Positions 3,921 to 56,522 of a stretch of 64,000 bases of DNA are shown in pieces. The position numbers were made by a program, and so were the translations under genes. Within the stretch, counting starts at the first letter, position 1. Every line of letters starts with the position of its first letter. The notes below the pieces were generated by a model. It was not told the origin of the DNA. It worked only from the letters and a program-made list of their open reading frames with translations, and ran no database searches. Source of the stretch: Candidatus Zixiibacteriota bacterium (GTDB lineage Bacteria > UBP14 > UBA6098); NCBI GenBank assembly GCA_011388305.1, contig DSAF01000158.1:2212-66211 (forward strand). Reading direction: 5' to 3'.

Positions 3921-3975
3921 TGAATTATGTTTTCAATGAATTATAACGATAGTGTCAAGTCATGCAAAGAAAAAA

Positions 3976-4048
3976 TACCCCATGGAGGATTCGAACCTCC
4001 GACCCACTGATTAAGAGTCAGTTGCTCTGCCAGCTGAGCTAATGGGGC
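3976..4048 (-). tRNA. tRNA-Lys (anticodon CTT)
   Basis: The reverse complement folds as a cloverleaf: acceptor GCCCCAT, D-arm GCTC/AGCTGGCA/GAGC, anticodon stem ACTGA/TCAGT with loop CTCTTAA, and T-arm GGAGG-TTCGAAT-CCTCC. Pair 1-72 is G·U. CCA is not encoded. Confidence 0.85.
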
Positions 4049-4168
4049 ATTTCGCGGCCGGCCAATTCGGCCGATGTTCCGTCAATTTATTCCAAATGCA
4101 TTGGTATTTCAAGCTATTTGTGAAATTTTTTCGCCGGAAGCTCTCGCTTTTTTGCTCAATTTCGCCTC

Positions 4169-4304
4169 GCGCGGGGGCGTCGGCGCGCGTAAACGCGCCG
4201 CGAAGTAGTCGGAGCGCGATCCTGCACAACAAAGAAAGTCTTCCGCCCGACTACTTCGAGCCTGCCTGCGATTTGTAAATCGCAGGCAGGGCCGACGCCC
4301 CGCC
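4169..4304 (+). repeat. copy 1 of a ~135-nt GC-rich structured intergenic repeat (outer stem plus three hairpins)
   Basis: GGGGGCGTCGGC...GCCGACGCCCC outer inverted repeat enclosing three hairpins: GCGCG-TAAA-CGCGC, a 12-bp stem CGAAGTAGTCGG/CCGACTACTTCG with a 34-nt loop, and the palindrome CCTGCCTGCGATTT-GT-AAATCGCAGGCAGG. The same architecture recurs at 26711-26844 and 56386-56522. Confidence 0.8.
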
Positions 4305-6665: not shown

Positions 6666-7781
6666 TTATCCCGTCAATCCCTCTTGCACGGCCTCGATAA
6701 CCGCGCTCTGCTCATCGCAAGTCAGCTCCGGGAATATCGGAAGGGAGAGCACTTCATTGCACGCGCGCTCGGTTTCGGGAAGCGAAAGCTCGTCATATCG
6801 GCCGGAATATGCCGGCTGGCGATGAAGCGGCACCATGTAATACACGGCGCAACCGATGGCTTTCTCCTGCAGGTGCTTTAAGGTATCGTCCCTCTTGCCG
6901 TCCTCGATGCGAACTGTATATTGATGATATGTATGGCGATAGCCCTCAAGCTCGTGCGCTGGCTCGATGCCTCCTGCGCCCGCGAAGGCAAGGCGGTATC
7001 TCTCGGCATTGGCTCTGCGTTTGTCGTTGAAATCGTCGAGGTGGCGGAGCTTCACTTTAAGGACGGCGGCTTGGATTTCATCGAGGCGCGTGTTATATCC
7101 GAAAGTCTCGTGGCGGTATCGGTCGTTTCGTGTGCCGTGCATTCTCATCGAGACGGCGAAATCGCGGACTTCCTGCGAATTTGTCGTTATAAGGCCGCCA
7201 TCGCCCACTGCGCCGAGGTTTTTGCTGGGGAAGAAACTGAACGCGCCGGCATGACCGACAGAACCCGCTTTGCCTGACGGGCAGGCCGCGCCGATAGCTT
7301 GGCAAGCGTCCTCGATAACGGCGAGGCCGTGTTCTTCGGCAATCGCCATCACGGCGCCCATGTCGCACATCTGGCCGAAAATATGCACGGGAATAATCGC
7401 CTTGGTTTTGGGCGTGATTTTCCGGCGGATGTCCTCGGCGTCGATGTTGAAAGTTTTCGGCTCGATGTCCGCGAAAACCGGAGTCGCGCCGACATCGTCT
7501 ATGATCTCGCAGGTGGCGAAATAGCTGAACGCCGTCGTGATGACCTCGTCGCCCTCGCCCACTCCGAACGCCCGCAATGCGATGCGCAGTGCGTCGGTGC
7601 CGGAGTTCACGCCGACGGCGAACTTCGCGCCGGTGAAATCCGCCGCCTCGGCCTCAAACGCCTTGACGTTCGGCCCGAGAATATAATAACCAGAACGCAA
7701 GACGGCCAGCACCTCGCGTTCCACCTCGTCGCGAATCATCTCGTATTGCCTTTTAAGGTCGAGCAGGGGAACACTCATCAT
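6666..7781 (-). CDS. DegT/DnrJ/EryC1/StrS family PLP-dependent sugar aminotransferase
   Basis: N-terminal PLLDLKRQY...GPNVKAFE motif and a PLP-lysine region typical of sugar-nucleotide aminotransferases. Length 371 aa. Confidence 0.85.
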   Translation of the reverse strand: MMSVPLLDLKRQYEMIRDEVEREVLAVLRSGYYILGPNVKAFEAEAADFTGAKFAVGVNSGTDALRIALRAFGVGEGDEVITTAFSYFATCEIIDDVGATPVFADIEPKTFNIDAEDIRRKITPKTKAIIPVHIFGQMCDMGAVMAIAEEHGLAVIEDACQAIGAACPSGKAGSVGHAGAFSFFPSKNLGAVGDGGLITTNSQEVRDFAVSMRMHGTRNDRYRHETFGYNTRLDEIQAAVLKVKLRHLDDFNDKRRANAERYRLAFAGAGGIEPAHELEGYRHTYHQYTVRIEDGKRDDTLKHLQEKAIGCAVYYMVPLHRQPAYSGRYDELSLPETERACNEVLSLPIFPELTCDEQSAVIEAVQEGLTG

Positions 7782-11848: not shown

Positions 11849-11974
11849 TTCTATCTCCTCTATTGATTTATGATTTGTGATTGATGATTATAGATTGGAA
11901 GGCGAGCGACTTTGGGTCGAACCCCGCCTTTTACAATCTTCAATCTCCAATCATCAATCTGAAATCCAAGTGCT
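11849..11974 (-). promoter_or_regulatory. conserved 5' leader element, copy A (shared with the secD upstream region)
   Basis: Minus-strand sense reads TTGGATT-CAGATTG-GATTGGAGATTG ... AAAAGGCG-loop-CGCC ... AAATCATAAATCAA-SD-ATG. This is about 70% identical over ~125 nt to 14897-15017. Confidence 0.6.
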
Positions 11975-14896: not shown

Positions 14897-15017
14897 ATAC
14901 TCCTCCTTGATTTATGATTTAGGATAGGTGATTTATTTGGGATTCGGGCGATTTCCTTACGCAGTAGCGCCTTTTCCAACATAAATCTCCAATCCGCAAT
15001 CTGCAATCCAATTTTTA
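14897..15017 (-). promoter_or_regulatory. conserved 5' leader element, copy B (upstream of secD)
   Basis: Homologous to 11849-11974: TTGGATTGCAGATTGCGGATTGGAGATTT...AAAAGGCG-loop-CGCC...AAATCATAAATCAAGGAGGAG-ATG. Confidence 0.6.
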
Positions 15018-23729: not shown

Positions 23730-26597
23730 CTACTTCATATAAACTATCTTGCCTCCGGCCTGCTCGCCGCCCGATGTCACCCTGTAGAGATAAGTCCCCG
23801 TAGGGAGAAACTCGCCGTTTTCGAGCGTCGCGTTCCAGCGGATGAGGTTCGGGCCGGCCTTCGCCGACGGCAATGAGAAATTGCGCACGAGGCGGCCGTT
23901 TACGTCGAATATGTCTATCTCCACCGGCGCAGGCTCAGGAATGTCGAAGCCGAGTATCACCGCGCTGTTGAACGGATTCGGATACGGCGAGAGGAGCTTC
24001 ATCGAATACGGCCTCACCGCCTCCTCGGGAACATCCCAGAAATAGGGGACATCCGCCCACGCCAAAGCCCTCTCGAGGAAAGAGTGGCGTAGGCTATCGC
24101 TGAATCCCTCGATGCCGAACTCGAGAAGTATGCTCTTCCATCCCTCGGGGCTTTCATAGCGAACTCCGCAAGTCGAGTCGGGAAGCTCGCCTGCATTGTA
24201 GTAGAGGAACGGAATTCCGCCGCCGACTGCGCTACAGCTTCCCGTGTATCGCTGGTTAAGGGCGCTTCCGCCCCCAAACGCGATATTGTCCTCGAATCCG
24301 TCGCCGATGATGTCGCCGTCCAAGCCTTTGATGTTCATGGCCAGAGCCAGCGGGACGACATCCTCCACATGCCTCGTGCCGAAAACTCGCTCGAGCCAAG
24401 CGGGCGTGGCCATCTGGGGCATGTGTTGGCCGGTGAGCATGAGCAATCTTCCGGCTTCGGCGGAGAGCCAGCCCTCCATGTCGGCCTCGCTTGAACCAGG
24501 GAGAACCCTATGGCCGGACTCGTCGCCGGTCATGTAAATTATCACTCTATGGCGATCCATAATTTCGCGGGGGAGGCCGGTAGTTGGCACGAAAACGCTG
24601 TCGAACGGCACTCCGCCCCAGCGAAGCGATCCCATTACTTTATTTATATAGTCGAATGTCGTGTCTATCGATGCTACGAGAACCTCGGGATATCCCACCA
24701 TCGTTCTGAAATTGGCGATGTGGACGTAGCGGTCGGGCGTGGTTAACTCGATTTTGAAACTGACGAATCGTCCGTAGCGGTGCGTAGGATCCATCTTGAA
24801 AACTATCGGGTTGCCCGCGTTCGAGTTGGTTGCGCCGTTGGGAATAGAGCCGATAGTCGCGATGCTATCGAGTATTATCACGAGCGTGTCTTTGGTTGTC
24901 ACTTTGATTTGCGCGCCTGTCGCGGGCGCCCAAGTCGGGTCGGCGCTGTTCTCGTATGTGAAGAAAAGCTCGACTCTCTCGTCCGGCTCGGGGCGGCCGT
25001 TGCCGTTCTCGTCGATAAGCTCGACATCGACTAAAGACAGCGATGGGAATATGCCCGCGGCGAGTGCCCTGAAAGCGTTGACTCTGCCGGAACCGAGCTG
25101 TTCGCCCGCGGCGTATGATGCATTGCCGGGGACGTCGTATATATAGTCCGCCCAGTCCTCTAACCTCTGGCGAATCCAGTGGTTAGAGCTGTCCGGGAAG
25201 AAGCTCCATAGAAGTCCGGCGGCACCCGCGACAACGGGCGCGGCCATGCTCGTGCCATCGAAAGAGGCGTATCCGGGAGCGAAATTCGACCACCATGAAC
25301 CATCGCACGGTGCTGGTGGGCGCTCGTAGAAGCGCGGCACTGTCGAGCCCATATCCTCGCCCGGGGCCGAGATATCGACAGTTGTGCTGAAATTAGAAAA
25401 TCCCGCTTTGCGGTCGGATGGGCCGGTGGCGGCAACGGCAATAACCTCGGGATATGCCGACGGATAGTGAAGCTCATCGGTGTTGTCGTTGCCGGCGGCG
25501 GCTGTGATGAGCACGCCCCAGCTGTTGACTGCTGTGTCTATGAGAGAATGAACGAAATGGCTCGAATCCCTTCCGCCGTAGCTGAAGTTGAAAACCTTAC
25601 AACCCATCATAGTGCCGTAATGCAGAGCCTGTATGACGGCGGCGTTCTGGTTATATCCGCGACAGTCGCGCGAATAATAGCCCGTGCGGAGTGCCATAAT
25701 TTGCGTCCGCCATGTGATTCCCGCGATGCCGACGTTGTTGTTGGCCTCGGCGGTCATGATGCCCGTGCAATGCGTTCCGTGGCCGTTATATCTGAAGTCC
25801 ATCGGGTCGTTGTCGAAATCGAGGCCGTCCTCGCGGATTGTCGGGTCGGTGGGGTGGCGGTATGCATCGGTGAAAACGCCATCGACGAAATCATAACCGA
25901 TGAAGTCGTCGATATATCCGTTGCCGTCGAGGTCGAAGGATGAGTCTGGCGGAAGTGTCCAGTCTTGTTGGACATCCCCCGGATCGAATCCTACGCCGGG
26001 GATGAAGACATAGCCGTTGTCGTTCAAGTCTTCGCCGAGATTCTGCCACATAAGGTTGGTCAAGTCCTCGTGGAGATAGTCCACGCCGGAATCGCATGCG
26101 CCCATGATAATCGTCGGCTCGCCCTGCGTGAAGTCCCAGACGCGGTCTGCCTGAATTTTGCGGGCATACCATTGGTGCGACCAGTAGAACGGGTCGTTGG
26201 GCGTCGCGCACTGGACATAAACGAAATCAGGCTCCATGATTGTGATGCCCTTCGCGCCATGCAAAAGCTCCATGGCCGATGGGACGTCGATTTTTTCTTC
26301 ATCGAAATATACTTTGAACCATCTCTCGACCCAGCGCCACCTCCGGCGATATTCGGGGTTCGGAGCGATAGGGATGAGCCTCCGCCAACGATCGACGCCA
26401 ATTACGCGGAAAGCCGCGTCGATTTCGGGCCAGCCGGTTGTGACGAAGCCGTCCTCGTCGATTATAGGGTCGCCGAATTCCGTCTCTTCGATTTCCATAA
26501 GAAGTGTGCCGGAAACCCATCGTGTGGGGTCGTCTTGCGCGAAAGCGGCGAGAGCCAAAACAATCAGCGCAACAGCTATTAACATCAAACTTCGCAT
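23730..26597 (-). CDS. subtilisin-like serine peptidase (S8) with a T9SS C-terminal sorting domain
   Basis: Catalytic Asp/His/Ser motifs: DSGVDYLHEDL, HGTHCTGIM, GTSMAAPVVAGAAGLL. The C-terminus carries the T9SS CTD signature YPNPFNSAV...GTYLYRV. The start is set at MRSLMLIAV (signal peptide). Confidence 0.85.
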   Translation of the reverse strand: MRSLMLIAVALIVLALAAFAQDDPTRWVSGTLLMEIEETEFGDPIIDEDGFVTTGWPEIDAAFRVIGVDRWRRLIPIAPNPEYRRRWRWVERWFKVYFDEEKIDVPSAMELLHGAKGITIMEPDFVYVQCATPNDPFYWSHQWYARKIQADRVWDFTQGEPTIIMGACDSGVDYLHEDLTNLMWQNLGEDLNDNGYVFIPGVGFDPGDVQQDWTLPPDSSFDLDGNGYIDDFIGYDFVDGVFTDAYRHPTDPTIREDGLDFDNDPMDFRYNGHGTHCTGIMTAEANNNVGIAGITWRTQIMALRTGYYSRDCRGYNQNAAVIQALHYGTMMGCKVFNFSYGGRDSSHFVHSLIDTAVNSWGVLITAAAGNDNTDELHYPSAYPEVIAVAATGPSDRKAGFSNFSTTVDISAPGEDMGSTVPRFYERPPAPCDGSWWSNFAPGYASFDGTSMAAPVVAGAAGLLWSFFPDSSNHWIRQRLEDWADYIYDVPGNASYAAGEQLGSGRVNAFRALAAGIFPSLSLVDVELIDENGNGRPEPDERVELFFTYENSADPTWAPATGAQIKVTTKDTLVIILDSIATIGSIPNGATNSNAGNPIVFKMDPTHRYGRFVSFKIELTTPDRYVHIANFRTMVGYPEVLVASIDTTFDYINKVMGSLRWGGVPFDSVFVPTTGLPREIMDRHRVIIYMTGDESGHRVLPGSSEADMEGWLSAEAGRLLMLTGQHMPQMATPAWLERVFGTRHVEDVVPLALAMNIKGLDGDIIGDGFEDNIAFGGGSALNQRYTGSCSAVGGGIPFLYYNAGELPDSTCGVRYESPEGWKSILLEFGIEGFSDSLRHSFLERALAWADVPYFWDVPEEAVRPYSMKLLSPYPNPFNSAVILGFDIPEPAPVEIDIFDVNGRLVRNFSLPSAKAGPNLIRWNATLENGEFLPTGTYLYRVTSGGEQAGGKIVYMK

Positions 26598-26710
26598 AGT
26601 CACTCCATGACAATCTGAGTTTACAAATTTATAGATTATATTTGAATAGCATCGCAAAGTCAAACCAAAATGCAATTTGGAGTTTGTTTCGATATTTTTG
26701 TGATTTCCGA

Positions 26711-26844
26711 GCAGGGGGCGTCGGCCCTTCCTGCGATTTGTAAAATCGCAGGAAGGTGCGAAGTAGTCGGTGGGCAGTTATTTGCCACAATAAGCAATCG
26801 CGCCCCGACTACTTCGTAGCGCGTTTACGCGCGCCGACGCCCCG
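26711..26844 (-). repeat. copy 2 of the structured intergenic repeat, inverted orientation
   Basis: Module order on the plus strand is outer-D-C-B-outer: TTCCTGCGATTT-GTA-AAATCGCAGGAA, then GCGAAGTAGTCGG...CCGACTACTTCG, then GCGCG-TTTA-CGCGC, bounded by GGGGGCGTCGGC / GCCGACGCCCC. Confidence 0.8.
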
Positions 26845-26919
26845 TGAGGAGCGAAAAAACAGCTTGACTTTCATGAAGGGGATGCGTATTTTTATTAAAA
26901 GTTAGGAAGAATTAACTCA

Positions 26920-27234
26920 ATGCGGCTCGATATAATCCAAGACGGCGAATTTGCACAGGTAATCGATGTGTGCGGGCAAGGCCCTATCCGTGCGAGACTC
27001 ATGGACATGGGATTCTCCCGAGGCACAACAGTCGAGGTCATCCGCAAGGCGCCGATGGGCGGCCCCATCGAGGTGAGAGTCAAGGGAACGCTGGTATCTC
27101 TGAGGCCACAGGAGGCCATGATGGTCGAAGTCGCTCCTATCGTCCGTAGGCGAGGATATCGCCATCGCGGGCGGCGCGGATTTTTTCGCGGTTTCATGAA
27201 TTTCTTCGAAAACGGCACCGATGGAGACAAGTAG
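26920..27234 (+). CDS. feoA: FeoA domain protein with an Arg-rich C-terminal extension
   Basis: An SH3-like FeoA core (VIDVCGQGPIRARLMDMGFSRGTTVEV), then an RRRGYRHRGRRGFFRGF tail. The 3' end overlaps the feoB start. Confidence 0.8.
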   Translation: MRLDIIQDGEFAQVIDVCGQGPIRARLMDMGFSRGTTVEVIRKAPMGGPIEVRVKGTLVSLRPQEAMMVEVAPIVRRRGYRHRGRRGFFRGFMNFFENGTDGDK

Positions 27235-29257
27235 TCCCTCCCAAAAAATCCGTGTGGCCGTCGCCGGCAACCCAAATTCCGGCAAAACATCGATTTTCAA
27301 CGCTCTCACGGGGATGCGCCAGCATGTAGGCAATTGGCCGGGCGTGACGGTCGAGAAAATCGTCGGCCATGCCGTCTATGACGACATCGATATCGAGTTC
27401 ATCGACCTTCCCGGCACATACTCGCTGTCGCCATACAGCCCCGACGAGCGCGTCGCGCGGGATTTCCTGCTCTTCGAGCGGCCTGATGCCGTCTGCGTTG
27501 TCGTTGATGGCACGAGCCTCGAGCGGAGCCTCTATCTCGTCGCGCAAATAGTCGAGCTGAACATCCCATTTGTGTTGGCGCTCAACATGATAGACATAGT
27601 CGAGGCGCGCGGAATGAAGATCGACACCGAGAAACTCTCAGCGCTCATCGGCGCGCCGGTCGTTCCCACCGTCGCACGCTCGCGCAGGGGAATTCGCGAG
27701 CTGGTCAGGGAAATCATTCACATCAAAGACAACGAATATTATCCCGTCCCTGTCGATTATGGCAAAGAAACCGAGCGAGCCATCCTCAATGTTGTTGAGA
27801 AAATCTCGCTGGCACCGCAACTCGCCAAGAAGTGCCACACCGGAAGGTTCATCTCGGCCATGCTCCTCGCCGGCGACCCCGAAATCGAGGGGCTTATATA
27901 CGGAGCATCCGAAAACAGCGAGCTTGAGGCCGAAATCGCCGAACTTCGCATGAAACTCGAGGCCCGCGAGCGCACCGACGGCGAGACTATCCTCGCAAAC
28001 GCCCGCCACGGCTGGGCCAGCGGCATCTTCCACGAGGTAGTCGAACACCCCACGCACGACGAGCCGACGGTCACCGACAAAATTGACGACGTGCTACTCC
28101 ATAAATTTCTCGGCCTGCCGATTTTCGGCGTGGCGATGTTCCTCGTGTTCATGGCGACATTCGGCCTCGGGCGTTTCCCCACAGTCTGGATAGAGGCGTT
28201 TTTCGGCTGGCTCGGCGGCTCTCTCGATGGCTTGTTTGCGTCGCTCGGCGCGCCGGAGATATTGAATTCGCTCGTCGTGAACGGCATCATCGAGGGCGTG
28301 GGCGGCGTGCTGGTCTTCCTCCCGAACATAGCGATATTATTCTTCTTTGTAGCGATTTTGGAGGATTCCGGATACATGGCGCGTGCCGCATTCCTCGTGG
28401 ATAACATAATGCACCGCATGGGCTTACATGGCAAGAGCTTCATCCCGATAATACTCGGCTTCGGGTGCACCGTGCCGGCGGTCATGGCAACGCGCACTCT
28501 CGAAAACCGCGAAGACCGCCTGCTGACAATACTCATCCTGCCGTTCGTGCTGTGTAGTGCGCGCATTCCTGTTTTCGTCCTGCTGTCGAGCATATTTTTC
28601 GCGCGATGTGCGGGTATCGTTATGTTCAGCATGTATTTATTGAGCATCCTCGTGGCGATTTTCACCGCGAAACTCCTCAAAACGGCGATTTTCCCCGGCC
28701 TCACGACACCCTTCGTCATGGAGCTTCCGCCCTATCACGTCCCCAGCCTGCGCGGGATTCTGCTCCACACGTGGGAGCGGTCATGGGCGTTCATCCGCAA
28801 AGCAGGCACGGTTATTCTCGTGGGGTCTGTGATTATCTGGGCGCTGGGGAGCATGCCTCCGGGCGCGGAATACGCAAGCGAGGGCACTTGGGCGGCATCG
28901 ATTGGCAAGTTCCTTGAGCCGCTGGTTAAACCCTTCGGCTCGAACTGGATTGGCGCGGTGGCATTGCTATTCGGGTTTGCGGCGAAGGAGATAGTCGTTT
29001 CCACGCTGACTGTGTTGGCTGGCGCAGGCGATATCGCCCTCGGTGGCGCAATGCGGGAGATTTTCACGCCGCTGTCGGCTTATGCTTTCATGGTCTTCAC
29101 GCTGATTTACACGCCATGCATCGCGACGGTCGCGGTTATCAAGAAAGAGACGCAGAGCTGGAAGTGGACGGCAGTCTCGGTAGCGTTGGGGCTTGCGCTG
29201 GCGTGGATTTTGGCGACCTTGGTTTACACTGTCGGCTCAGTGCTGGGGTTTAGCTGA
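27221..29257 (+). CDS. feoB: ferrous iron transporter FeoB
   Basis: N-terminal G-domain with GNPNSGKTS and DLPGTYS motifs, followed by the polytopic membrane domain. Length 678 aa. Confidence 0.9.
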   Translation: METSSPSQKIRVAVAGNPNSGKTSIFNALTGMRQHVGNWPGVTVEKIVGHAVYDDIDIEFIDLPGTYSLSPYSPDERVARDFLLFERPDAVCVVVDGTSLERSLYLVAQIVELNIPFVLALNMIDIVEARGMKIDTEKLSALIGAPVVPTVARSRRGIRELVREIIHIKDNEYYPVPVDYGKETERAILNVVEKISLAPQLAKKCHTGRFISAMLLAGDPEIEGLIYGASENSELEAEIAELRMKLEARERTDGETILANARHGWASGIFHEVVEHPTHDEPTVTDKIDDVLLHKFLGLPIFGVAMFLVFMATFGLGRFPTVWIEAFFGWLGGSLDGLFASLGAPEILNSLVVNGIIEGVGGVLVFLPNIAILFFFVAILEDSGYMARAAFLVDNIMHRMGLHGKSFIPIILGFGCTVPAVMATRTLENREDRLLTILILPFVLCSARIPVFVLLSSIFFARCAGIVMFSMYLLSILVAIFTAKLLKTAIFPGLTTPFVMELPPYHVPSLRGILLHTWERSWAFIRKAGTVILVGSVIIWALGSMPPGAEYASEGTWAASIGKFLEPLVKPFGSNWIGAVALLFGFAAKEIVVSTLTVLAGAGDIALGGAMREIFTPLSAYAFMVFTLIYTPCIATVAVIKKETQSWKWTAVSVALGLALAWILATLVYTVGSVLGFS

Positions 29258-33420: not shown

Positions 33421-36400
33421 ATGCCTCAGCCAAAAAAAAGTCTTCGCTTTTCCCATATCGCACTCGCAATTCTCTCACTCTGCTCTATCGCAGTAGCCCA
33501 AACGGAAATCATCTTCGATGTCATTAGCGCCGGCGGAAACGAGCATTTCGGGGTCACATCATCGAGATACAAGCTGACATCGACAATCGGCCAGTCCACG
33601 CCGATTTCGGCGGAGCCGCTGACGGGAACATCGCACAGCATCTTCCCCGGCTATCGCAAAATTGACAGGGACTACTGGTATCCGTTCAGCTGGTTCACAA
33701 TCACCGTCCACTATGCCTCGGCGACATCGTTCGAGCTTACTTGGTCGGGGATGGACACCACATCACACGATGGCGAGGGCTGGGGAATCTGGAACTACGA
33801 CCTCCAGTATCGCACCGAGGGCGGCGCATGGACAGATTGGCACATGGCCACGGTCGAGACTTCGGCGACCTTCGGGCCGTCGGCGCCGGTTGTTGTCGAG
33901 GAGGGCGAGTCGTATTATTTCCGGCTCCGCGCGAGGGACAAGGTTCGCAATGTTGCGCCGTGGACGGAGGAGAGCGGCCACGACACGACGGTCATCACGG
34001 TGAACTACACAGTGGAGTTCTGCATTCACACGCCTGCTCCGGGGCTTTCGACGGATGCGTTCAACTTCGCGACAATCGAGTATTTCCCCGTCGCCGGCCT
34101 GCCCACGAGCGTCAACCTTTGGGAGGGCGAGTGCGTAGAGCTGTCCTGCGTTCCCGGCGAAAGGGCATCGATTTCGCGGACGACATCCGACTCCGACGGC
34201 GAGGAGCGCTGGGCGGTGTCCAACATCGATGACACTGCATTCGTCATCACCGGCTCGACCGATTACGACATACCATTTTGGCATCAAATTCGCCCGACTG
34301 TCCACCTTGTCGGGACGGACATAACGCACACCGTTTCGACACTTCAGCGCGAAGAATTCGGCTCGCCGCATCTTGAGTCCGGGCTATGGGAACTTTGGAC
34401 CGATTGGCTGGATTACGGCTCGACGCTCGAATTCTCCGAGTGGACTACCGGCTCTCCCGCGCGCAGAGCCGAAGCCGACGATTCTGTCCGCTTCCGCGAC
34501 ATTACTTCGTCATTCACCGATACGATTAACTACACCGCGGCCGGCAACATGGTGACAATCCAGACGAACTTCGGCGATTCGGTATATGTCGATGGCACGC
34601 GGTTCCCAAGCCCCCACCACACGAACTGGTTCATAGGCTCATCGCACGAAATAGCCGTCTGCAGGACGGTCCATATCTCTGACTGCGAGCGCTGGGTTTT
34701 CCAGCAATGGCACGATGGCTCGATAGACACGTCCCGCATGGTCACCATCGATTCCGATACGGTGTTCACCGCTATTTTCGAGCGGCAGTTGCGCGTGGAA
34801 ATCACGAACCCATCCGGCATTGGCTACCCCATCCCGGCGGTTGGCTCGTATTGGTTTGCTGAGGGCGATACGGTCGAGGGCCACATGGATGTCACGGGCG
34901 TTGTCGATTACATGCTCGTCGGTTGGCTCGGGACGGGGTCGGCGCTCTCCGGCGGAGGGGCGAGTTTTTGGTTCATCATTCACGACTGCTCGAGCATCGA
35001 GTGGCGATGGGTCCCCGCCAGCGACGATTTGTGCACGCTCCGCGTTTATAGCCGATACGGACATCCGCACCCCAGCGGCGTTTATGTCGTGCCGAGAGGG
35101 ACTTTGGTTTGGGCGAGCGTCGAGGACAGCACTTTCGAGGGCGGCGACTGGCATCATTGCACGGGCTGGCTCGGCGATGGCGATGTCGTGCCCGCAGAGG
35201 GCGACAGCAATATATTGAGTTTCACGATGACGGACAACGGCTGGCTCGTATGGCAGTGGGATGGCAATCTCGAACTGCCGTTAGTGGTCAGCAGTTCGCC
35301 ATCGATTCACGGCCCGCCGGTGCCGCCGGTGGGGACGCACTGGTATGAGATAGACTCGCCAATCTCCGCGTTCGTCGAGGAAAACCCCGACGAAGACTGG
35401 TTCTGCACCGGCTACATCGCATCGGGCGCACTGCCTACAACGAGTGCGGACAGCGTCCACTTCATCCTCTCCGCGCCCACGGAAATCGACTGGCAGTGGG
35501 TATATTACCCATCAGGGCCGCTGGATACCGTTTGGATTTTCAGCAGATTCGGCGACCCTCTTCCCACGCGCGGCATGCACAGATACCCGCGCGGCACGGT
35601 CGTCACCGCGGTGGTCACGCCGTTCGACGGCCCGAACTATTGCTCCGGCTGGTCGGGCACGGGCAGTGTTCCGGGGTTGGGCACGGGGACTTCGGTGAGC
35701 TTCACGCTGGATGCTTTCAGCACGCTCACATGGAATTGGAACGACGAGCTACTTGTGCCGCTTGTGGTGATAAACCCCGGCGGATACGGCAATCCCACGC
35801 CGAACGAGGGCGTCCATTGGTATGAGATGTTCACGGAGGTTAGCGCATCCGTGACAAGCCCCTATTCCGGCTGGTTCTGCGTCGGGTATAACGGCTTCGG
35901 GAGCGTGCCGGGGTTCGGATATCCGCCATATTGCCACTTCACCATTGCCGTGGCCTCGGGCATCGAGTGGCTCTGGGCAGACGAGGCTTATATCCTCCGC
36001 GTAACCGCGCCGGCTTACAGCGATCCTGTTCCGCCGGCGGGGATAACATATCACCCGCCCGGGCGTCATATCGTTGCGACCAATGTCGATACCCTATGGG
36101 AGCACGACGCTTTCCGCTACGTTTGCAAAGGCTGGACGGGCGACGGCACCGTCGTGCCGATTGCCGGCACGACGAGCATGGCAGATTTCACGATGACAGC
36201 TAATGCTACTCTTGAATGGCTCTATCAAACCCAGTTCTACCTCGAACTTGACTATTATGGCCTGCCGGAGGGCATCGAGCCGGATGTCCTCGACTTCGAG
36301 GGCTGGTTCGCCCGCAATGATACGGTCGTTCTCGTCACCGACTCGGTGGTTATGGACGGCGATGATCCCTATGTCTTCCTCCGCTGGGATGATTCGGGCA

Positions 36401-37782
36401 TCGGCGCACCAATCGATAACATATTCAGCGACTCAACATTCATCGTTATCGACAGTTCATACACCATTCTCGCGGAATTCCGCGAGGCGGTTTGGGTCGA
36501 GATAATCAAAAGCCCGCCGGGCAATGACCTCGGCTGGATTAGGATAAACACCGATACTACTTATGGCGAGGCTTTCGCCGGATATCTCGTCCGCGATTTC
36601 GAATACACAGTTCAAGTCTCGCCCTATGACGCAAACTCCGATGTGATGTTCAATTTCCTGCACTGGCGCGTGGATTCACTTGCCGCGTCCCAAAGAACAT
36701 TCACCCCCCTCTCGGACACCGTGCTCTATGCCGACTATCAGAGGTTCTGGCATATCATCATCGAGAAGCATCCGCCGGACAATCACCTCGGCAAGCTCGA
36801 GGTTGACGAAATCACTTATGCCGGCGCGGCTTCCGTCCGACAGTCTTTTTGGTGGGAGGACGGGAGCATTCACCGCTTCAATGTGACAGCGAGAGATTCT
36901 ACCCCGACTATCAGATACGATTTCAATCGCTGGAACGACGGCTCGACTTCTGTCAGCAGAATTTATGGTCCGGTCACCGGCCCGGATTCACTGGCCGCTC
37001 TTTACAATAAGACCGTCCTCTGCCGCGTCGAGAAGGTGCCGTCGCAACCATACGGCGCCATCGAGATTACGGGAACGCGTTATTACGGTGTCGGCGCGGT
37101 GGATTTCTGGCATCCATGGGGCGATGCGGTCGTTTTGGCCGTGAGCAAGTATGACGCCCACGACGATTCGGTCTATATATTCTCGCATTGGGATATCCCG
37201 GGAGAGCCTACGGATAGCGCATGGACTTGGCTCGATGTGAGAGAGCCACAGACGTTCAGAGCTATATACAACGGCTCCAAAATCAACATATATTTCGAGA
37301 TTGGACAGCATGGCGTCATGCCGCGTGACAGCATTTACTGGCTTATCCCCGATTCGCTGGATTTCGGCGAGGAGAGGGTAATGCCGATTCAGGATTCTAT
37401 TAGGATAGTGAGCCTCTCGAACGTCCCAATCGACTTTTCGCTGGGCATCGACCGAATAAAGGACTTGAACACCGGCACGCTTGATCCTCATTGGACGCCG
37501 GCATATTTCGCGGGCGTCGGCAGATTTGCGCTTCATGCACAATTCACGGATCTGTCCACGCCGCCGGTGACATGGGCGAGGATCCACGATTACGTTAAGG
37601 ATACGCCGTTCTGGGCGTCATCGATAATTTTCGGACCGGGGGGACATTACATTCAGCCCGAGGGATATCCGAACAGCTCGACAATGCTGTGGTTCAAATT
37701 CACAGCGCCGCTCGCATCCGAAAACTCGACGCACCAGCGGGCGATATGCCTCAAGCTTTCGGCAAGGATGTATTTACCATAA
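33421..37782 (+). CDS. giant secreted protein (1453 aa) with an FN3-like N-terminal region and more than ten tandem InlB-B-repeat-like (Listeria-Bacteroides repeat-like) modules
   Basis: Signal peptide, then repeated ~70-aa modules with the pattern P-x-P-x-G-x-(H/Y)-W-Y/F...C-x-G-W-x-G-x-G...F-T-M...W-x-W. Examples: YGHPHPSGVYVVPRGT...CTGWLGDGDVVP...LSFTMTDNGWLVWQW and FGDPLPTRGMHRYPRGT...CSGWSGTGSVPG...VSFTLDAFSTLTWNW. Confidence 0.75.
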   Translation: MPQPKKSLRFSHIALAILSLCSIAVAQTEIIFDVISAGGNEHFGVTSSRYKLTSTIGQSTPISAEPLTGTSHSIFPGYRKIDRDYWYPFSWFTITVHYASATSFELTWSGMDTTSHDGEGWGIWNYDLQYRTEGGAWTDWHMATVETSATFGPSAPVVVEEGESYYFRLRARDKVRNVAPWTEESGHDTTVITVNYTVEFCIHTPAPGLSTDAFNFATIEYFPVAGLPTSVNLWEGECVELSCVPGERASISRTTSDSDGEERWAVSNIDDTAFVITGSTDYDIPFWHQIRPTVHLVGTDITHTVSTLQREEFGSPHLESGLWELWTDWLDYGSTLEFSEWTTGSPARRAEADDSVRFRDITSSFTDTINYTAAGNMVTIQTNFGDSVYVDGTRFPSPHHTNWFIGSSHEIAVCRTVHISDCERWVFQQWHDGSIDTSRMVTIDSDTVFTAIFERQLRVEITNPSGIGYPIPAVGSYWFAEGDTVEGHMDVTGVVDYMLVGWLGTGSALSGGGASFWFIIHDCSSIEWRWVPASDDLCTLRVYSRYGHPHPSGVYVVPRGTLVWASVEDSTFEGGDWHHCTGWLGDGDVVPAEGDSNILSFTMTDNGWLVWQWDGNLELPLVVSSSPSIHGPPVPPVGTHWYEIDSPISAFVEENPDEDWFCTGYIASGALPTTSADSVHFILSAPTEIDWQWVYYPSGPLDTVWIFSRFGDPLPTRGMHRYPRGTVVTAVVTPFDGPNYCSGWSGTGSVPGLGTGTSVSFTLDAFSTLTWNWNDELLVPLVVINPGGYGNPTPNEGVHWYEMFTEVSASVTSPYSGWFCVGYNGFGSVPGFGYPPYCHFTIAVASGIEWLWADEAYILRVTAPAYSDPVPPAGITYHPPGRHIVATNVDTLWEHDAFRYVCKGWTGDGTVVPIAGTTSMADFTMTANATLEWLYQTQFYLELDYYGLPEGIEPDVLDFEGWFARNDTVVLVTDSVVMDGDDPYVFLRWDDSGIGAPIDNIFSDSTFIVIDSSYTILAEFREAVWVEIIKSPPGNDLGWIRINTDTTYGEAFAGYLVRDFEYTVQVSPYDANSDVMFNFLHWRVDSLAASQRTFTPLSDTVLYADYQRFWHIIIEKHPPDNHLGKLEVDEITYAGAASVRQSFWWEDGSIHRFNVTARDSTPTIRYDFNRWNDGSTSVSRIYGPVTGPDSLAALYNKTVLCRVEKVPSQPYGAIEITGTRYYGVGAVDFWHPWGDAVVLAVSKYDAHDDSVYIFSHWDIPGEPTDSAWTWLDVREPQTFRAIYNGSKINIYFEIGQHGVMPRDSIYWLIPDSLDFGEERVMPIQDSIRIVSLSNVPIDFSLGIDRIKDLNTGTLDPHWTPAYFAGVGRFALHAQFTDLSTPPVTWARIHDYVKDTPFWASSIIFGPGGHYIQPEGYPNSSTMLWFKFTAPLASENSTHQRAICLKLSARMYLP

Positions 37783-52785: not shown

Positions 52786-52816
52786 CACTACCTATCACCC
52801 ATAACCCAATACCCTA

Positions 52817-55364: not shown

Positions 55365-55474
55365 GTTGGGTTTTGGGTTATGGGTTTTGGGTTTTGGGTT
55401 TTGGGTTATGGGTGATTGGGAAAAGGCTAAGGGTTAAAGGTTAAGGGTTAAGGGTAAATGGGTCATGGGTTTGG
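55365..55474 (+). repeat. telomere-like G-rich minisatellite: (GGGTTTT/GGGTTAT)x7 followed by (GGGTTAA)-type units; 14 G3 tracts in 110 nt
   Basis: Direct reading gives GGGTTTTGGGTTATGGGTTTTGGGTTTTGGGTTTTGGGTTATGGGTGATTGGG...AAGGGTTAAAGGGTTAAGGGTTAAGGGTAAATGGGTCATGGG. It fills the whole interval between the stop of the 55475-56305 gene and the serS ATG. Confidence 0.85.
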
Positions 55475-56385: not shown

Positions 56386-56522
56386 GCAGGGGGGCGTCGG
56401 CGGCCGTGAACGGCCAGCGAAGTAGTCGGGGCAGAATCGTCGCTTTGTGCAAAAAATCTCCCCCGACTACTTCGCTCTCACCTGCGATTTGTTAAATCGC
56501 AGGTGAGGCCGACGCCCCCCCC
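56386..56522 (+). repeat. copy 3 of the structured intergenic repeat
   Basis: GGGGGGCGTCGGC / GGCCG-TGAA-CGGCC / GCGAAGTAGTCGGGG...CCCCGACTACTTCGC / CTCACCTGCGATTT-GTT-AAATCGCAGGTGAG / GCCGACGCCCCCC. Stems are kept by compensatory substitutions relative to copy 1. Confidence 0.8.

Follow-up and report, generated by a model that had tools for sequence, protein, structure and literature searches.

An oriented, dispersed intergenic repeat with a conserved four-way-junction fold, one copy of which lies between the S8 peptidase and feoAB genes of a Zixibacteria genome

What is the strongly structured DNA that lies between a divergently transcribed S8 peptidase gene and feoAB in a Candidatus Zixiibacteriota genome, and how does it stand to the promoters on its two sides? 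The window analyzed here is a 64,000-nucleotide stretch of that genome (contig DSAF01000158.1), and its 47 ORFs are ordinary chromosomal genes. The SerRS and FeoB that it encodes are identical to NCBI proteins filed under 'candidate division Zixibacteria bacterium' (MAG). A first-pass annotation described positions 26711-26844 as the second, inverted copy of a structured repeat that has a defined polarity and has inserted in both orientations, and proposed that this copy, placed in a divergent promoter region, could affect both promoters. The genes and predicted promoters of the region are as follows.

23730..26597, minus strand: S8 family peptidase with a T9SS C-terminal sorting domain (Pfam PF00082, 2.5e-41; PF18962, Por_Secre_tail)
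26663->26635, minus strand: predicted sigma-70-like promoter of the S8 gene, TTGACT-17-TATAAT (11/12 match), outside the element
26864->26892, plus strand: predicted sigma-70-like promoter of feoA, TTGACT-17-TATTTT (9/12 match), outside the element
26920-27234, plus strand: feoA (Pfam FeoA, 1.6e-21)
27221-29257, plus strand: feoB (Pfam FeoB_N, 2e-63)

Pfam confirms both neighbors, and with predicted S8 and feoA promoters on either side, copy 2 does lie in a divergent promoter region. The distances given for it are also right: the S8 peptidase ATG at 26597 is 114 nt from 26711, and the feoA ATG at 26920 is 76 nt from 26844. A promoter scan of 26500-27000 returned two sites against 0.5 expected, and the core of copy 2 falls between their -35 boxes, 52 nt from the S8 box and 21 nt from the feoA box. 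Since both predicted promoters lie between the element and the genes, the element is upstream of both -35 boxes and is part of neither transcript. The same 500 nt hold no site with the features of an intrinsic terminator, and a T-rich tract precedes the structure rather than following it.

The interval 26711-26844 contains a full copy of the repeat, whose core limits were refined to 26715-26843 by covariance-model search (cmsearch). Its parts, and the other two copies in the window, are listed here.

26844..26863, minus strand: 5' flank extension of copy 2, …TTTTTTCGCTCCTCAC on the element strand, adjoining the feoA -35 box
26715..26843, minus strand: core of copy 2, a complete four-way-junction repeat (129 nt; cmsearch and alignment with copies 1 and 3)
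26833..26843, minus strand: outer stem, 5' arm, GGGGCGTCGGC on the element strand, which includes CGTC
26819..26832, minus strand: hairpin B, a 5-bp stem GCGCG/CGCGC with a 4-nt TNNA loop
26759..26816, minus strand: long stem C, with GTAG in the stem and an asymmetric, partly conserved loop
26805-26816 and 26759-26770: arms of stem C, reverse complements CGAAGTAGTCGG and CCGACTACTTCG, respectively
26771-26804, minus strand: loop of stem C in copy 2, ~34 nt
26726..26756, minus strand: hairpin D, a 14-bp perfect stem CCTTCCTGCGATTT/AAATCGCAGGAAGG with a 3-nt loop
26715..26725, minus strand: outer stem, 3' arm, GCCGACGCCCC on the element strand
26686..26714, minus strand: 3' flank extension of copy 2, CTGCTCGGAAATCACAAAAATATCGAAAC on the element strand
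4174..4301, plus strand: copy 1 (127.5 bits, cmsearch), between tRNA-Lys(CTT) and an NAD-dependent epimerase gene
3975-4049, minus strand: tRNA-Lys(CTT) beside copy 1
56391..56518, plus strand: copy 3 (139.9 bits, cmsearch), flanked by the stop codon of a sigma-54 response regulator gene and by the promoter of a 276-aa gene

The 64-kb window thus holds three copies, and within it the conserved 11-12-mers occur at zero mismatches inside these three alone, as does the exact 11-mer of the 5' outer arm. Copy 2 is indeed inverted. Its end-to-end alignment with 4174-4301 and 56391-56518 requires the reverse complement; it scores 139.0 bits on the minus strand (E = 4e-25) and 60.7 bits on the plus strand; and its plus strand reads outer arm, D, C, B, outer arm, an order opposite to that of copies 1 and 3 and the one described in the annotation. 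The loop of stem C begins GGCGCGAT on the minus strand, as had been reported (ATCGCGCC at 26798-26805 on the plus strand). The end-to-end alignment and the orientation-dependent bit scores exclude the refutation that had been set in advance, namely that the apparent inversion is just two unrelated palindromes. One Logan contig (L032) begins at window position 26814, inside the copy 2 repeat, a typical assembler break at a dispersed repeat.

All three window copies share a four-way junction made of an 11-bp outer stem, a short hairpin B, a long stem C with a loop of ~30 nt, and a 14-bp hairpin D, with hardly any unpaired bases at the junction. Their predicted folds range from -87 to -109 kcal/mol (z = -9.2 to -15.0, none of 200 shuffles being as good), that of copy 2 being -88.2 kcal/mol (z = -11.5, 0/200), and both strands fold about equally well. 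A metagenome scan that used both arms of stem C as its pattern returned 45 loci, mostly from assembly OMKS01; these gave 8 unrelated simple palindromes, 3 duplicates of a locus already found, from other samples, and 38 new distinct full copies. Together with the three window copies, the latter form an alignment of 41 sequences. Columns 38-48 and 85-95 of this alignment are invariant by ascertainment, because they formed the search pattern; the covarying pairs belong to the outer stem, hairpin B, the base of stem C, and hairpin D, parts that the search pattern did not select.

Across the 41 copies, 97.9% of the 1882 pair cells of the four-helix structure are paired, a level that 0 of 500 shuffles reach (92.7% after shuffling). 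Changes on both sides are seen at 16 pairs (97 cells), and in a control in which the 3' partners were slid by 1-3 columns pairing falls to 36-50%. The outer stem (pairs 1-11/130-140) is 100% paired, with compensatory changes in three copies (L053, L069, and L062). In hairpin B, GCGCG/CGCGC covaries with GGCCG/CGGCC, with nine double changes at each of two pairs, and hairpin D has double changes at 7 of its 14 pairs with 99.7% of cells paired. Nearly all of the pair cells are Watson-Crick (1833 of 1882), with 10 G.T and 13 A.C; the four core helices have only two G.T pairs and one T.T, and are essentially free of wobble. For instance, column pair 101/127 has switched from C-G to T-A (21 versus 19 copies) without wobble intermediates. 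One junction position has an excess of A.C cells, which a single subfamily has inherited. Neither chance palindromes nor an artefact of assembly is a tenable account; both are refuted, with a probability that we put close to nil: the same locus is present in three independent assemblies (ENA, JGI, and Logan), the 41 distinct copies have covariance-model E-values down to 5e-27, and neither the fold energy (0/200) nor the covariation (0/500) is reached by shuffled sequences.

The polarity claimed for the element proves to be general. In the right orientation the 41 copies score 117-148.4 bits, with a variant (L075) at 96.7, and in the wrong orientation 46.9-73.1, so that the right orientation exceeds the wrong one in every copy. 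This gap makes polarity a property of the family, which owes it mostly to its B-C-D order and to the asymmetry of the C loop. The family has many copies, is oriented and strictly intergenic (every one of the 41 copies), and occurs in both orientations regardless of the neighboring genes: 21 copies are on the '+' strand and 20 on the '-' strand of arbitrary locus coordinates. The claim of an oriented element found in both orientations is upheld by these counts; the further claim that it had "inserted" is supported directly only for copy 3, as set out below.

Where do the copies lie? Divergent spacers hold 17 of the 39 classifiable copies, tandem spacers 16, and convergent spacers 6, and the tandem-spacer copies run 6 along the direction of the genes and 10 against it. 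The 5' end of the element faces gene starts 27 times and the 3' end 23 times; median distances are 34 nt to stop codons and about 97 nt to start codons, and density in the window and the OMKS contigs is ~1 copy per 10-20 kb. With local GC skew as a proxy for the replication strand, 25 of the 41 copies are in one configuration, which is not a significant bias (p = 0.14, Mann-Whitney; p = 0.21, Fisher). Canonical terminators, a hairpin followed by a T-tract, adjoin several copies (in the flanks of L039, L053, and L057), and the element is not a terminator substitute. TTGAC[AT] hexamers within 70 nt of an element end point outward in 15 cases and inward in 1. Their spacing, however, varies between 21 and 63 nt, which rules out the element as a donor of -35 boxes and identifies the outward boxes as host promoters rather than element parts.

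These observations bear on whether the element is a structured non-coding RNA, made from a small RNA gene or acting in cis within mRNAs, with the four-way junction as an RNA fold. Functional RNA is usually marked by strong covariation and by a fold that persists as the sequence turns over, both of which are seen here, and the tandem and convergent copies, a median of 34 nt past stop codons, would be co-transcribed in 3' UTRs. On the other side, the core helices are almost without G.U pairs, and a comparison of G.U with A.C asymmetry in these helices, by which an RNA strand might be chosen, gave no signal; both strands fold equally; orientation is random relative to transcription; and 17 of the 39 copies, copy 2 included, are in divergent spacers upstream of both promoters. 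The flanks have no conserved promoter or terminator, the junction lacks the conserved unpaired nucleotides that ribozymes and riboswitches need, and no Rfam family corresponds to the element. In Rfam 15 at the gathering score the only window hit is a tRNA, and relaxing the cutoff to E < 10 adds nothing but generic hairpin matches to miRNA models, of at most 26 bits compared to gathering scores of 54-90. We consider an RNA function of the family quite unlikely.

The best evidence that a copy arrived by insertion comes from copy 3. Synteny of a histidine kinase, the sigma-54 regulator, a 278-aa gene, and SerRS allows comparison with two relatives (L084 and L086; 81% and 70% SerRS identity), in which the spacer between the regulator and the 278-aa gene is 69 and 25 nt, versus 239 nt in the window. 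In the relative with 81% SerRS identity the stop codon lies 7 nt from a TTGACA-17-TATCTT promoter, and at the copy 3 locus ~178 nt (the core and both flank extensions) stand between the stop codon and the equivalent TTGACA-17-TATCAT. Copy 3 at least is thus absent from the orthologous sites of related genomes, which, in a comparison between species rather than strains, supports its insertion as a unit of ~180 nt.

The annotation had named comparison with orthologous loci as its check, and for copy 2 the outcome is less favorable than for copy 3. In a more distant relative (L087; S8 57% and FeoB 69% identical), the one in which this gene arrangement is kept, S8 and feoA are likewise divergent, and the 326-nt spacer between them contains no family member. 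Its inter-promoter DNA is AT-rich, weakly structured (z = -2.3), and has no alignment with the element; because the spacer is equally long and unalignable, it offers no clean empty site. Copy 2 is therefore absent from this relative, and the clean empty site that copy 3 has is not available for it. The three closest S8 orthologues (70%, 68%, and 56% identity), which were considered as empty sites, have a different upstream neighbor and were set aside. The feoA promoter, together with an operator-like palindrome before feoA (GTTAGG-N6-YTAAC), is conserved in the window and in two relatives (L087 and L088), and equivalent feoA promoters are present in relatives without the element. As promoter and palindrome are conserved in element-free relatives, the regulatory region predates the element. 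That copy 2 affects the S8 and feoA promoters, as the annotation suggested, is speculation for which proximity is the sole ground.

The limits of the mobile unit, if such it is, are less sharply drawn than its core. The outer stem is commonly prolonged outward by a short covarying stretch (such as CGCTCG/CGAGCG or CGCGCCG/CGGCGCG), and the flanks carry a position-conserved T-rich TTTTCGC at about -20 and an A-rich GCGAAAA at about +15, a pair that is clear in ~40% of copies. The repeat unit is a 128-nt core, or ~180 nt with the flank extensions. Comparing own with mismatched flanks told nothing about the distal inverted repeat, since its motif is common to the whole family. No consistent direct repeat that would mark a target-site duplication is seen beside the copies, a result to be read with exact ends that are undefined and a sole empty site that is between species. 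A terminal-inverted-repeat type of MITE, derived from a DDE insertion sequence, could be drawn from these features, with the outer stem and TTTTCGC/GCGAAAA as the transposase-binding inverted repeats and the internal hairpins as incidental. Such a MITE would be, like this family, ~180 nt, non-coding, multicopy, intergenic, present in both orientations, and absent at orthologous sites, and terminal inverted repeats do exist here (the outer stem and the distal TTTTCGC/GCGAAAA). That no target-site duplication was seen argues against it, as does the lack of an insertion sequence with matching ends in GTDB representatives (exact pattern) and in plasmid and phage collections. Moreover, the three internal helices are compensatorily kept and have same-shape replacements in other subfamilies, which is unexpected for incidental structure. 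For these reasons a DDE-type origin seems improbable to us.

How old are the copies, and what keeps them folded? Averaged over pairs of copies, the C loop has diverged by 45%, the D loop by 64%, and the B loop by 34%, compared to 13% for those paired columns that were not part of the search pattern. Among the 22 pairs that vary, Watson-Crick cells make up 94.5%, versus 79.6 ± 0.8% after shuffling. Hence the pairing and the sequence of three stems have been maintained while the loops diverged almost to saturation: the copies are old, yet their stems are intact, which is not expected of a dead selfish element. Upkeep of the stems needs either ongoing constraint on each copy or a process that corrects palindromes. 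A guide-RNA-like role for the C loop was tried and rejected, as the loop is not complementary to its own flanks (longest match 7.37 nt to own flanks, 7.27 nt to the flanks of other copies). Intact stems combined with nearly randomized loops, taken together with the compensatory evolution of all four helices and with a fold that outlasts sequence replacement (below), point to a specific recognizer of the branched DNA (or RNA) structure.

In-situ constraint of this kind is what would be seen if the repeat were an architectural or protein-binding DNA site maintained by the host, comparable to the E. coli BIME/REP elements that bind gyrase, IHF, and Pol I. Such a site could act by cruciform extrusion or by binding a dimeric protein, with a topological or insulating role between transcription units, possibly with A-tract, UP-like DNA beside the -35 boxes, and might overlay a mobile origin. 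Invariant stem sequence with loops near saturation fits a site of this sort, as do the strict Watson-Crick pairing, equal on both strands, the density of ~1 copy per 10-20 kb, and the element ends adjoining outward -35 boxes (15 outward versus 1 inward). A motif common to hairpin D and the distal flanks, GCGATTT/AAATCGC, could be a dimer binding site. The positions are not kept, however: copies 2 and 3 are absent from orthologous spacers, and the members found in relatives are elsewhere. The -35 boxes are at variable distance (21-63 nt), and complete turnover of the inner helices between subfamilies argues against sequence-specific binding there. We regard a host-maintained site as somewhat unlikely.

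That turnover is seen in weaker covariance-model matches at three places in related genomes (L070 1207-1335, L078/L079 2246-2417, and L084 3848-3987), all of which fold as four-way junctions (z = -10.0, -11.2, and -9.7 for L070, L078, and L084, respectively). These members start with (G)GGCGTCGG and continue with a short hairpin, a long stem capped by a large loop, a long hairpin, and the complementary arm, and their three inner helices are entirely different in sequence from those of the window family. The fold thus outlasts complete sequence replacement among related genomes, while one CGTC-containing stem remains unchanged. L078/L079 belong to genome GCA_023145965.1, whose S8 peptidase is 70% identical to that of the window. 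The members in relatives are at other sites, that of L084 being upstream of UPRTase, where the window has none, and that of L078 upstream of tRNA-Lys.

Other searches, for further family members and for a partner enzyme, returned nothing. A 20-base, two-block pattern from the 5' end gave 29 hits in GTDB species representatives, which we discarded as chance or coding matches in high-GC actinobacteria without the downstream modules. A pattern scan of a viral contig collection gave 0 matches, and blastn of plasmid and phage collections gave no match. No HUH…YxxNP motif of the RAYT type was found in six-frame ORFs of ~620 kb or in the window; Pfam domains reveal no transposase, recombinase, HUH, or integrase among the 47 window ORFs; and no parent insertion sequence with matching ends was found in GTDB representatives (exact pattern), plasmid, phage, or the other DNA searched. 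A search for split halves of the element on either side of a gene (9-mer arms, one mismatch) was too noisy to use, and a search of the literature on repeats in Zixibacteria brought up no relevant paper. The repeat family is previously undescribed.

Of the systems described so far, REPs and REPINs come closest. REPs fall into GTAG- and CGTC-tagged superfamilies and often form head-to-head dimers able to fold into larger structures; a unit is defined as a 20-40 bp palindrome with an unpaired GTAG/CGTC tag at one end, and no transposase is known for those of the CGTC type (Di Nocera et al. 2013, PMC3733652). REPINs have conserved ends and a spacer limited in length and hairpin capacity, compensatory changes in them are common, and a 'clover' fold with IS200-like recognition has been proposed for them (Bertels & Rainey 2011, PMC3116915). 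The present element is likewise extragenic, non-coding, present in tens or more copies (here 41), and predicted to fold as single-stranded DNA; as in REPINs, its ends are conserved, its middle is variable, and compensatory changes occur. It has both GTAG and CGTC, and the head-to-head arrangement of REPs and REPINs also places tags at the outer ends. Unlike the tag of a REP, however, its invariant CGTC (outer stem) and GTAG (stem C) are fully paired in 11-12-bp stems, in a unit of 128-180 nt. REPs are said to have frequent G.T pairs, which this family almost lacks, and they prefer tandem or convergent spacers, downstream of ORFs, whereas 17 of the 39 classifiable copies here are in divergent ones. 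In a REPIN two inverted copies form a single long hairpin; here the terminal hairpins B and D are unrelated to each other, and the four-way junction is the most stable fold. A single-copy RAYT gene flanked by repeats would be expected of a REP/REPIN system, and no RAYT-type motif was found in the ~620 kb searched here.

The ends of IS200/IS605 elements and the PATEs are similar in having distinct subterminal hairpins on the left and the right, polarity, no requirement for target-site duplication, and a folded single-stranded DNA substrate. The outer stem of the present element pairs its two ends, which those of IS200/IS605 do not, and for the present family no TnpA/TnpB gene and no parent insertion sequence were found, and the test for strand bias was not significant (p = 0.14-0.21). 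Integron attC sites also keep their structure, with conserved outer pairing boxes, while inner sequence turns over, and they are recognized as folded single-stranded DNA with a defined polarity. An attC site, however, is an unbranched hairpin that bears extrahelical bases, and such sites are lined up as cassette arrays beside the intI integrase, whereas the copies described here are branched, single, and dispersed, and the window has no integrase. BIME, ERIC, Correia/NEMIS, and Bacillus cereus bcr1-type repeats are intergenic, 100-200 nt long, and extensively structured. They are often beside promoters or in 3' UTRs, some alter transcription or mRNA stability, and they fold as simple or imperfect long hairpins, with target duplications in Correia and bcr1. 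None has sequence similarity to the element, and to our knowledge no BIME, ERIC, Correia, or bcr1 repeat has been reported to form a four-way junction that is fully paired and covaries in all its arms.

The reading that we favor, with about even confidence, is that the family is a non-autonomous, non-coding, dispersed structured DNA repeat of the REPIN/MITE-like kind, an elaborate variant of REPs, REPINs, and MITEs. The copies would have spread, in the past or at present, as miniature mobile elements. A trans-acting, structure-specific enzyme may recognize the folded single strand, as Y1/HUH transposases of the RAYT or IS200/IS605 type do, and the conserved outer stem would then be the region of recognition or cleavage. 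Insertions would survive solely where promoters stay undisrupted, which would explain why copy 2 lies exactly between two -35 boxes. Several observations sit uneasily with a mobile repeat: near-saturated loops with invariant stems are unlike a recently active selfish element and point to in-situ constraint, the preference for divergent spacers is unlike that of classical REPs, no target-site duplication was seen, the GC-skew test of orientation was not significant, the one clean empty site (for copy 3) is between species, and no partner enzyme was found in ~620 kb or among the 47 window ORFs. A bolder form of the REPIN/MITE-like reading, which we think unlikely, is that the family represents a new class of structure-specified DNA repeat in Zixibacteria and relatives, in which a four-way ('clover' or Holliday-junction-like) fold closed by the CGTC stem is the substrate of a single-strand- or junction-specific enzyme and is also kept in situ by host use, for example as a supercoiling-responsive cruciform or as an insulator between divergent promoters such as those of S8 and feoA.

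For work on these genomes, the repeat is one that breaks short-read assemblies and that might be taken for an operator or a regulatory RNA ahead of feoAB. Much work has been done on dispersed structured repeats in Proteobacteria; for Zixibacteria, which are known essentially from metagenomes only, we found no description of any. With all four helices evolving by clean compensatory changes, a fold that outlasts sequence replacement around a constant CGTC stem, and stems kept intact beside nearly randomized loops, the family is unusually informative, and it gives a handle on what mobilizes or maintains CGTC-type palindromic repeats.

Gene order upstream of the S8 peptidase varies among close relatives: at two loci, L078 and L080 (the 70% and 68% relatives), an aminotransferase lies 60 nt upstream of the peptidase in the same direction, whereas the window (26597-26920) has a divergent feoAB at this place, as does L087, the locus of a more distant relative. 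Because L087, although more distant, shares the divergent feoAB with the window and the closer relatives differ, the S8/feoA arrangement is probably the ancestral one, with rearrangement probably having taken place in the closer relatives. The L087 DNA between the two promoters, a locus where the four-way-junction repeat is absent, is enclosed by a 12-13-bp inverted repeat, GGGAGTTTCCCCG … CGGGGAAACTCC (7383-7395 and 7530-7541); within this DNA, TTTTCGCGCGGGGACGGGC recalls the 5' end of the element. The predicted fold of the stretch is only weakly better than that of shuffled sequences (z = -2.3). The stretch could be a palindromic element, decayed or unrelated, at the position that copy 2 occupies in the window.

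Downstream of the -10 box of feoA and ahead of its start codon sits a palindrome, GTTAGG-N5/6-YTAAC, that is conserved in three genomes:

26901-26916, palindrome upstream of feoA in the window
~7598-7613, the same palindrome in L087, where it is perfect (GTTAGGATATCCTAAC)
~7677-7692, the same palindrome in L088, a relative sharing the feoA promoter region

It resembles a DtxR/IdeR-type iron box, and is a plausible candidate for an iron-responsive operator of feoAB.

Repeats of other kinds also occur in the window. The entire spacer between a 276-aa gene and SerRS consists of ~14 tandem heptamers (TTGGGTT / GGGTTAA; TRF score 82), and in relatives this spacer is just 4 nt (L084) or 21 nt (L086) long. 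A CCCA-rich stretch at 52790-52814 is related to the array (inverted repeat I23). The spacers flanking secD/secF carry short TGATT/CAATC-rich tandem repeats with periods of 7 and 14 (11861-11966, 14907-14933). Internal periodic repeats of ~480 and ~144 nt (families D1 and D3) lie near two very large ORFs for which Pfam at 1e-5 gave no match, and T9SS-tailed proteins adjoin.

55475, stop of the 276-aa gene
55366-55471, heptamer array
55363, start of SerRS
33421-37782, very large ORF, 1453 aa
37796-40111, very large ORF, 771 aa

Two members of the four-way-junction family, from two different genomes, each lie just upstream of a tRNA-Lys gene, which could reflect coincidence or a preferred neighbourhood:

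4174-4301, window copy, 125 nt from tRNA-Lys 3975-4049 (CTT anticodon), in opposite orientation
2246-2417, member in L078, 85 nt from tRNA-Lys 2502-2574 (TTT anticodon)

One contig of a short-read assembly (L032; Logan SRR7787372_443) ends inside the repeat, its start corresponding to window 26814, showing that this repeat family fragments assemblies of its host organism.
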